Below, piece by piece: positions 26,472 to 26,494 of a stretch of 64,000 nucleotides of DNA. Below the pieces are notes generated by a model. The model was not told the DNA's origin. It made no database searches and saw only the letters and a list, made by a program, of their open reading frames with translations. Source of the stretch: Escherichia coli (GTDB lineage: Bacteria > Pseudomonadota > Gammaproteobacteria > Enterobacterales > Enterobacteriaceae); NCBI RefSeq assembly GCF_003334405.1, contig NZ_QOWM01000003.1; one strand, written 5' to 3'. Position numbers and translations under genes: made by a program. How positions within the stretch are numbered: position 1 is the stretch's first letter; each line of letters starts with the position of its first letter.

Positions 26472-26494
26472 AAATGGTATTTAAAATGCAAATT
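26472..26494 (+). promoter_or_regulatory. NsrR repressor box candidate upstream of yeaR-yoaG
   Basis: AAATGGTATTTAAAATGCAAATT: imperfect inverted repeat around a central TTTAAAA, about 65 bp upstream of yeaR start. Confidence 0.5.

Follow-up and report, generated by a model that had tools for sequence, protein, structure and literature searches.

A predicted NsrR operator overlapping the NarL site and -35 element of the Escherichia coli yeaR-yoaG promoter

To judge from its sequence, the 23-bp imperfect inverted repeat upstream of yeaR-yoaG in the window (the whole 64,000-nucleotide stretch of Escherichia coli DNA analyzed here) is very probably the operator by which the [4Fe-4S] repressor NsrR, a member of the Rrf2 family, controls the yeaR-yoaG promoter. 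This analysis supplies the sequence of the box, its score, its placement against the published NarL site, and the extent to which it is conserved; the NsrR dependence and the response to nitric oxide (NO) come from the literature, and the steric mode of repression was inferred. The operator is already documented, being the same object as the K-12 yeaR-yoaG NsrR operator (Lin, Bledsoe & Stewart 2007, J Bacteriol 189:7539), with an identical 23-mer (as listed by Mehta et al. 2015), an identical locus, and a centre that calculates to -32, and the finding holds no new biology. The proposal of the first-pass annotation, an NsrR-like box at the NO-responsive yeaR-yoaG, was supported by an identical published site, by the NsrR regulation described in the literature, by a matrix scan, and by conservation across four genera.

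Box sequence and promoter anatomy

Positions 26300-27150 match E. coli K-12 MG1655 without a difference (100% identity), RefSeq places leuE, yeaR, and yoaG there, and the segment was found in 5,420 of the 5,426 complete E. coli genomes. A 172-bp spacer separates the end of leuE (26388) from the yeaR ATG at 26561, and just 3 bp lie between the yeaR stop and the yoaG start (Table 1). With the box 67 bp upstream of that ATG, the tightly coupled gene pair that had been claimed downstream of it at first pass was confirmed. Both genes are among those most strongly induced by nitrate/NO, with 160-fold (yeaR) and 168-fold (yoaG) induction in nitrate-grown CFT073. At the other end of the spacer, 8 bp past the leuE stop, a G+C-rich hairpin, AGCCCGCG-TTGT-CGCGGGCT (26396-26415), is followed by TCCC and has no T-run; a generic scanner gave no call for this element, which is probably the leuE terminator. 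A comparable GCCCGC...GCGGGC element was seen in Citrobacter and Salmonella.

TABLE 1 Features of the yeaR-yoaG locus, in coordinates of the window
Feature	Position	Strand	Description and basis
NarL 7-2-7 activator site TAACCAATAAATGGTA	26464-26479	.	Published; centre -43.5
Predicted NsrR operator AAATGGTATTTAAAATGCAAATT	26472-26494	.	11-1-11 imperfect inverted repeat, AAATGGTATTT-A-AAATGCAAATT
-35 hexamer TTTAAA	26480-26485	+	Weak, 4/6 to TTGACA; predicted by counting from the NarL centre (-43.5), with 17 bp to the -10 hexamer
-10 hexamer TACCCT (TAMCCT in relatives)	26503-26508	+	Predicted from the +1 position
Transcription start, G	26515	+	Deduced from the NarL centre at -43.5; invariant in 14 aligned promoters
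yeaR Shine-Dalgarno AAGGAGG	26547-26553	+	Sequence; conserved block before the ATG
yeaR CDS	26561-26920	+	119 aa, DUF1971; ORF, and RefSeq annotation in K-12
yoaG CDS	26924-27106	+	60 aa, DUF1869; ORF, and RefSeq annotation in K-12

The letters of the box, described in the first-pass annotation as an AT-rich imperfect inverted repeat, were exactly as quoted there, and they resolve into an 11-1-11 arrangement in which the left half (AAATGGTATTT) is identical at 8 of 11 positions to the reverse complement of the right half (AATTTGCATTT). The consensus half taken from ytfE (AAGATGCATTT) is matched at 7/11 positions by the left half and at 9/11 by the right one. The box is therefore built as expected of an E. 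coli-type NsrR operator, with two inverted AAGATGCATTT-like 11-bp halves and a 1-bp gap, and it overlaps the core promoter, as such operators do, by covering the predicted -35 hexamer.

The NarL 7-2-7 site resolved by cryo-EM in the NarL-RNA polymerase complex at the yeaR promoter (PMC10853779) is TAACCAATAAATGGTA, centred at -43.5, and the transcript in that study starts with G. Placing -44 at 26471 and -43 at 26472 puts +1 at G26515, and the box centre (26483) thus falls at -32, with the box spanning -43 to -21. The NarL site has the form of the consensus TACYYMT-NN-AKRRGTA (two inverted heptamers 2 bp apart), agreeing with it at 10 of the 14 specified positions, and its promoter-proximal half has bases 26472-26479 in common with the left NsrR half. 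The -35 element of yeaR is intrinsically weak and lies just downstream of, and abutted by, the NarL site (PMC10853779, PMC7419079); the predicted hexamer is wholly within the NsrR box, and its TTT (26480-26482) is invariant in the alignment. In the -10 hexamer, T26503 is likewise invariant, and A26504, C26506, C26507, and T26508 are conserved at 90% or more. A generic scan of 26300-27300 called neither a sigma-70 promoter nor a terminator, the empty sigma-70 result being what would be expected for a weak, activator-dependent promoter. The box centre of -32 reached here by arithmetic is in accord with the 2007 work of Lin, Bledsoe, and Stewart, who reportedly describe the NsrR operator as 'centered at position -32'.

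Another inverted repeat, AAACGG...CCGTTT (26510-26532), runs across the deduced +1, and several Citrobacter leaders carry others nearby, e.g., GCAGCG...CGCTGC. This repeat was rejected as a conserved 5'-UTR hairpin, because RNAalifold returned no consensus pair on 11 orthologous leaders.

Matrix score and conservation across genera

Mehta et al. 2015 (PMC5320621) tabulate 27 NsrR sites (their Table 4), of which the 16 distinct ChIP-seq-positive ones, yeaR not among them, were used to build a palindromised log-odds matrix; the test is therefore independent of the yeaR site. The position weight matrix scan, suggested at first pass as a check, was run over the whole 64-kb window and ranked the yeaR box first of 63,978 positions, with 20.7 bits. 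This score lies in the middle of the range of the 16 training sites (12.7 to 30.9 bits), and it is well above chance: the exact per-position P value is 5e-8 (exact convolution), with 0.003 matches expected by chance per 64 kb, 1.6e-5 per 172-bp spacer, and ~0.24 per 4.6-Mb genome of the same composition. Among windows simulated with a first-order Markov model, 2/300 attained the score of the box. The second-best match, AACAGGCATTTGAAGAGTCAGTT (48649-48671), reached 16.85 bits, and all remaining positions fell below 10; as an NsrR site this second match was discarded as most likely a chance occurrence, given its location within the ydjJ CDS and the 34 of 300 simulated windows that scored so high.

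To follow the box beyond E. coli, one genome per species was scanned for yeaR loci, which yielded 26 usable loci, from 5 Escherichia, 18 Citrobacter (including one MAG labelled Raoultella), 2 Salmonella enterica subspecies, and Silvania. The best matrix match of each 3.3-kb locus fell at the orthologous spot in all 26 cases, with its centre 73 to 84 bp upstream of the yeaR ATG, showing the conservation at orthologous promoters that an E. coli-type NsrR operator should have. There were 13 distinct box sequences among the 26 loci, scoring from 11.2 to 24.0 bits. The most diverged of them, with 6 to 8 differences from K-12 (TTGGTGTATTTAAAATGCCAGTT, TTGGTGTATTTTAAATGCCAGTT, TTGGTGTATTTTAAATGCCATTT, and AAGTCGCATTTTAAATGCATTTT), still scored 20.9 to 23.0 bits, whereas the K-12 box carrying an equal number of random substitutions averaged -0.8 to 4.7 bits, with at most 0.06% of such sequences attaining the observed score.

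Alignment of 14 representative promoters revealed conserved islands at the NarL+NsrR block, the -10 hexamer (TAMCCT), the G at +1, and the Shine-Dalgarno sequence, while the leuE-proximal part of the spacer was essentially unalignable. The mean majority-base fraction was 0.45 in the distal spacer, 0.71 in the NarL-only part, 0.88 and 0.82 in the left and right halves of the NsrR box, 0.89 in the -10 hexamer, and 0.63 in the leader. Within the box, the least conserved column of these 14 promoters was the central base (26483; 0.50), which stands between the invariant TTT and a near-invariant AAA and is the very position left unspecified by the 11-1-11 model. Conservation of the left half is, however, confounded by its role as a NarL half-site and by its adjacency to the -35 element, and this half matches the consensus at only 7/11 positions.

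In a clade comprising C. sedlakii, Citrobacter HRGM_0066, and C. amalonaticus AUH (loci L007, L015, and L024, at ~1395-1420), the sequence 5' of GTATTT is replaced (compare 26440-26479 of the window), and the upstream surroundings apparently differ as well. TGCCCCTTTTGGTGTA, which stands there instead, still agrees with the NarL 7-2-7 consensus at 11/14 positions, and the NsrR box still reaches 20.9 to 21.5 bits; the NarL and NsrR sites both seem to have been retained through sequence turnover in this clade. A YeaR-like fragment was also encountered in an assembly of Alkalicoccobacillus porphyridii (Bacillales), encoded on a 234-bp low-coverage contig and 95% identical to E. coli YeaR, and it almost certainly reflects contamination by enterobacterial DNA.

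Published evidence and alternative readings

The same 23-mer, AAATGGTATTTAAAATGCAAATT, is listed as a predicted 11-1-11 NsrR site of yeaR in Table 4 of PMC5320621, where a PatSer scan of CFT073 gave it an ln P of -17.05 (cut-off, -14.28), 11th of 27 genome-wide, and where yeaR is described as 'known to be regulated by NsrR', with citation of Lin et al. 2007. In the NsrR ChIP-seq of CFT073 in the same study, there was no peak at yeaR, which the authors labelled a false negative; in this respect the yeaR box differs from consensus-type NsrR operators. The first-pass annotation was silent on this peak-less ChIP-seq result, as it was on the overlap of the box with the NarL site and the -35 element. 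Regulation of yeaR by NarL and NsrR is restated in PMC4959519, and yoaG of Salmonella is in use as an NO reporter for the NsrR regulon. The E. coli NsrR list of Rodionov et al. 2005 comprises only ytfE, hmp, ygbA, and hcp and is without yeaR, whose site, unlike those four, is too weak for their 19-bp motif; the enterobacterial 'tehB-like' targets in that work are STM1808-type genes, which represent a different promoter.

Compared with consensus-type NsrR operators (ytfE, AAGATGCATTTAAAATGCATCTT; hmp; hcp; ygbA), the yeaR box has in common the 11-1-11 layout, a TTT-N-AAA centre, and, in its right half, an ATGC core, and its 20.7 bits stand against 30.9 for ytfE, 21.5 for hmp, and 24.9 for hcp. 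Its outer left half reads AAATGG rather than AAGATG, a departure from consensus that is explained by its doubling as a NarL heptamer. Other Rrf2-family operators (IscR type 1 and type 2, and those of Streptomyces NsrR) follow the same inverted-repeat logic, but their sequence motifs differ. The NarL site, for its part, shares 26472-26479 with the NsrR box (PMC10853779), yet it serves another protein (a phospho-NarL dimer, which activates) and has another symmetry, with its centre at 26471.5; the NsrR box reaches 15 bp further downstream, across the -35 element.

Given that the first 8 bases of the box lie in the NarL site and the next 6 form the -35 hexamer, the resemblance to an NsrR site could be incidental, the conserved block being accounted for entirely by a NarL 7-2-7 site, a -35 element, and AT-rich DNA recognized by Fis or alpha-CTD, with an indirect NO response of yeaR. 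Squire and colleagues reportedly observed, in 2009, a Fis footprint over the yeaR NarL site, which would speak for such an arrangement, as would the absence of a CFT073 NsrR ChIP-seq peak. We nevertheless regard it as very improbable, because the right half (26484-26494), which shares no base with the NarL site and for the most part lies beyond the -35 hexamer, still carries 9.6 bits in K-12; in Silvania and the C. sedlakii clade it is conserved or even raised, to 12.3 to 14.1 bits. Moreover, the NarL match of Silvania is down to 7/14 while its NsrR score is up to 23.0 bits, indicating that the NsrR-type signal is not merely a by-product of NarL binding. An accidental match is also at odds with the mere 0.003 matches of this strength expected per window, and the literature states that NsrR regulates yeaR directly.

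The better fit of the right half to the consensus (9/11 versus 7/11) raises the question of whether NsrR acts mainly via a single promoter-proximal 11-bp half, AAATGCAAATT, rather than the full 23-bp palindrome, the left half being kept for NarL only; one 11-bp motif may be enough according to a proposal of Partridge et al. 2009, cited in PMC5320621. The two halves of the K-12 box, however, contribute 11.3 (left) and 9.6 bits (right), and information of this size in both argues against a pure half-site model. Where the NarL-type sequence has been replaced, the left half is still NsrR-like (TTGGTGTATTT and AAGTCGCATTT; 8.8 to 9.1 bits), and in Salmonella diarizonae it is the right half that has nearly gone (0.1 bits), whereas the left half persists. 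Action through the right half by itself is accordingly quite unlikely, and an operator made of both halves is the reading that we retain.

Allelic variation and a possible mode of repression

Within E. coli, a 71-bp promoter core was found in 5,417 of the 5,426 complete genomes, and the 33-mer around the box was identical in 5,026 of them, with variation in the flanking bases. Even the most divergent alleles, with changes at 26444, 26451, 26453, 26461, 26463, 26500, 26506, and 26519, have an intact box. The main exception is T26487A, at box position 16 within the conserved right-half ATGC core, which was carried by 295/5,426 complete genomes and turns the box into AAATGGTATTTAAAAAGCAAATT, with a matrix score of 16.1 bits instead of 20.7. 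Among the T26487A genomes sampled, the serotype label, where given, was always O157:H7. The allele might be a lineage-specific operator-down variant that partly uncouples yeaR-yoaG from NsrR/NO control in O157:H7, a reading that we put forward tentatively and consider rather doubtful. T26487G occurred in 4 genomes, and Citrobacter sp. Awk4 likewise has A at the position equivalent to 26487. In E. coli strain C3728 (one genome examined), A26479G reduces the score to 16.2 bits; it alters the base that ends the NarL 7-2-7 site and that also occupies position 8 in the left NsrR half.

Since the box covers both the -35 element and a NarL half-site, the most likely mechanism is occlusion of RNA polymerase and NarL. 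An NsrR dimer would bind the 11-1-11 repeat and, reaching from -43 to -21 about its centre at -32, would cover the whole of the weak -35 hexamer together with the promoter-proximal NarL heptamer. In this position, holo-NsrR may shut out region 4 of the RNA polymerase sigma factor and compete with phospho-NarL by steric occlusion. Nitrosylation of the cluster by NO would then take NsrR off the DNA, leaving a freed promoter that NarL could activate, given nitrate or nitrite.

Overlapping control by nitrate (NarL) and nitric oxide (NsrR) has been studied in depth with the yeaR-yoaG promoter as a model, and for a documented site the present result has calibration value, in that a reader without tools picked the top NsrR-matrix match in 64 kb. 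The O157:H7 operator variant offers a small testable lead. The comparative data clearly illustrate how a single 23-bp sequence can combine the roles of a repressor operator, half of an activator site, and a -35 element.
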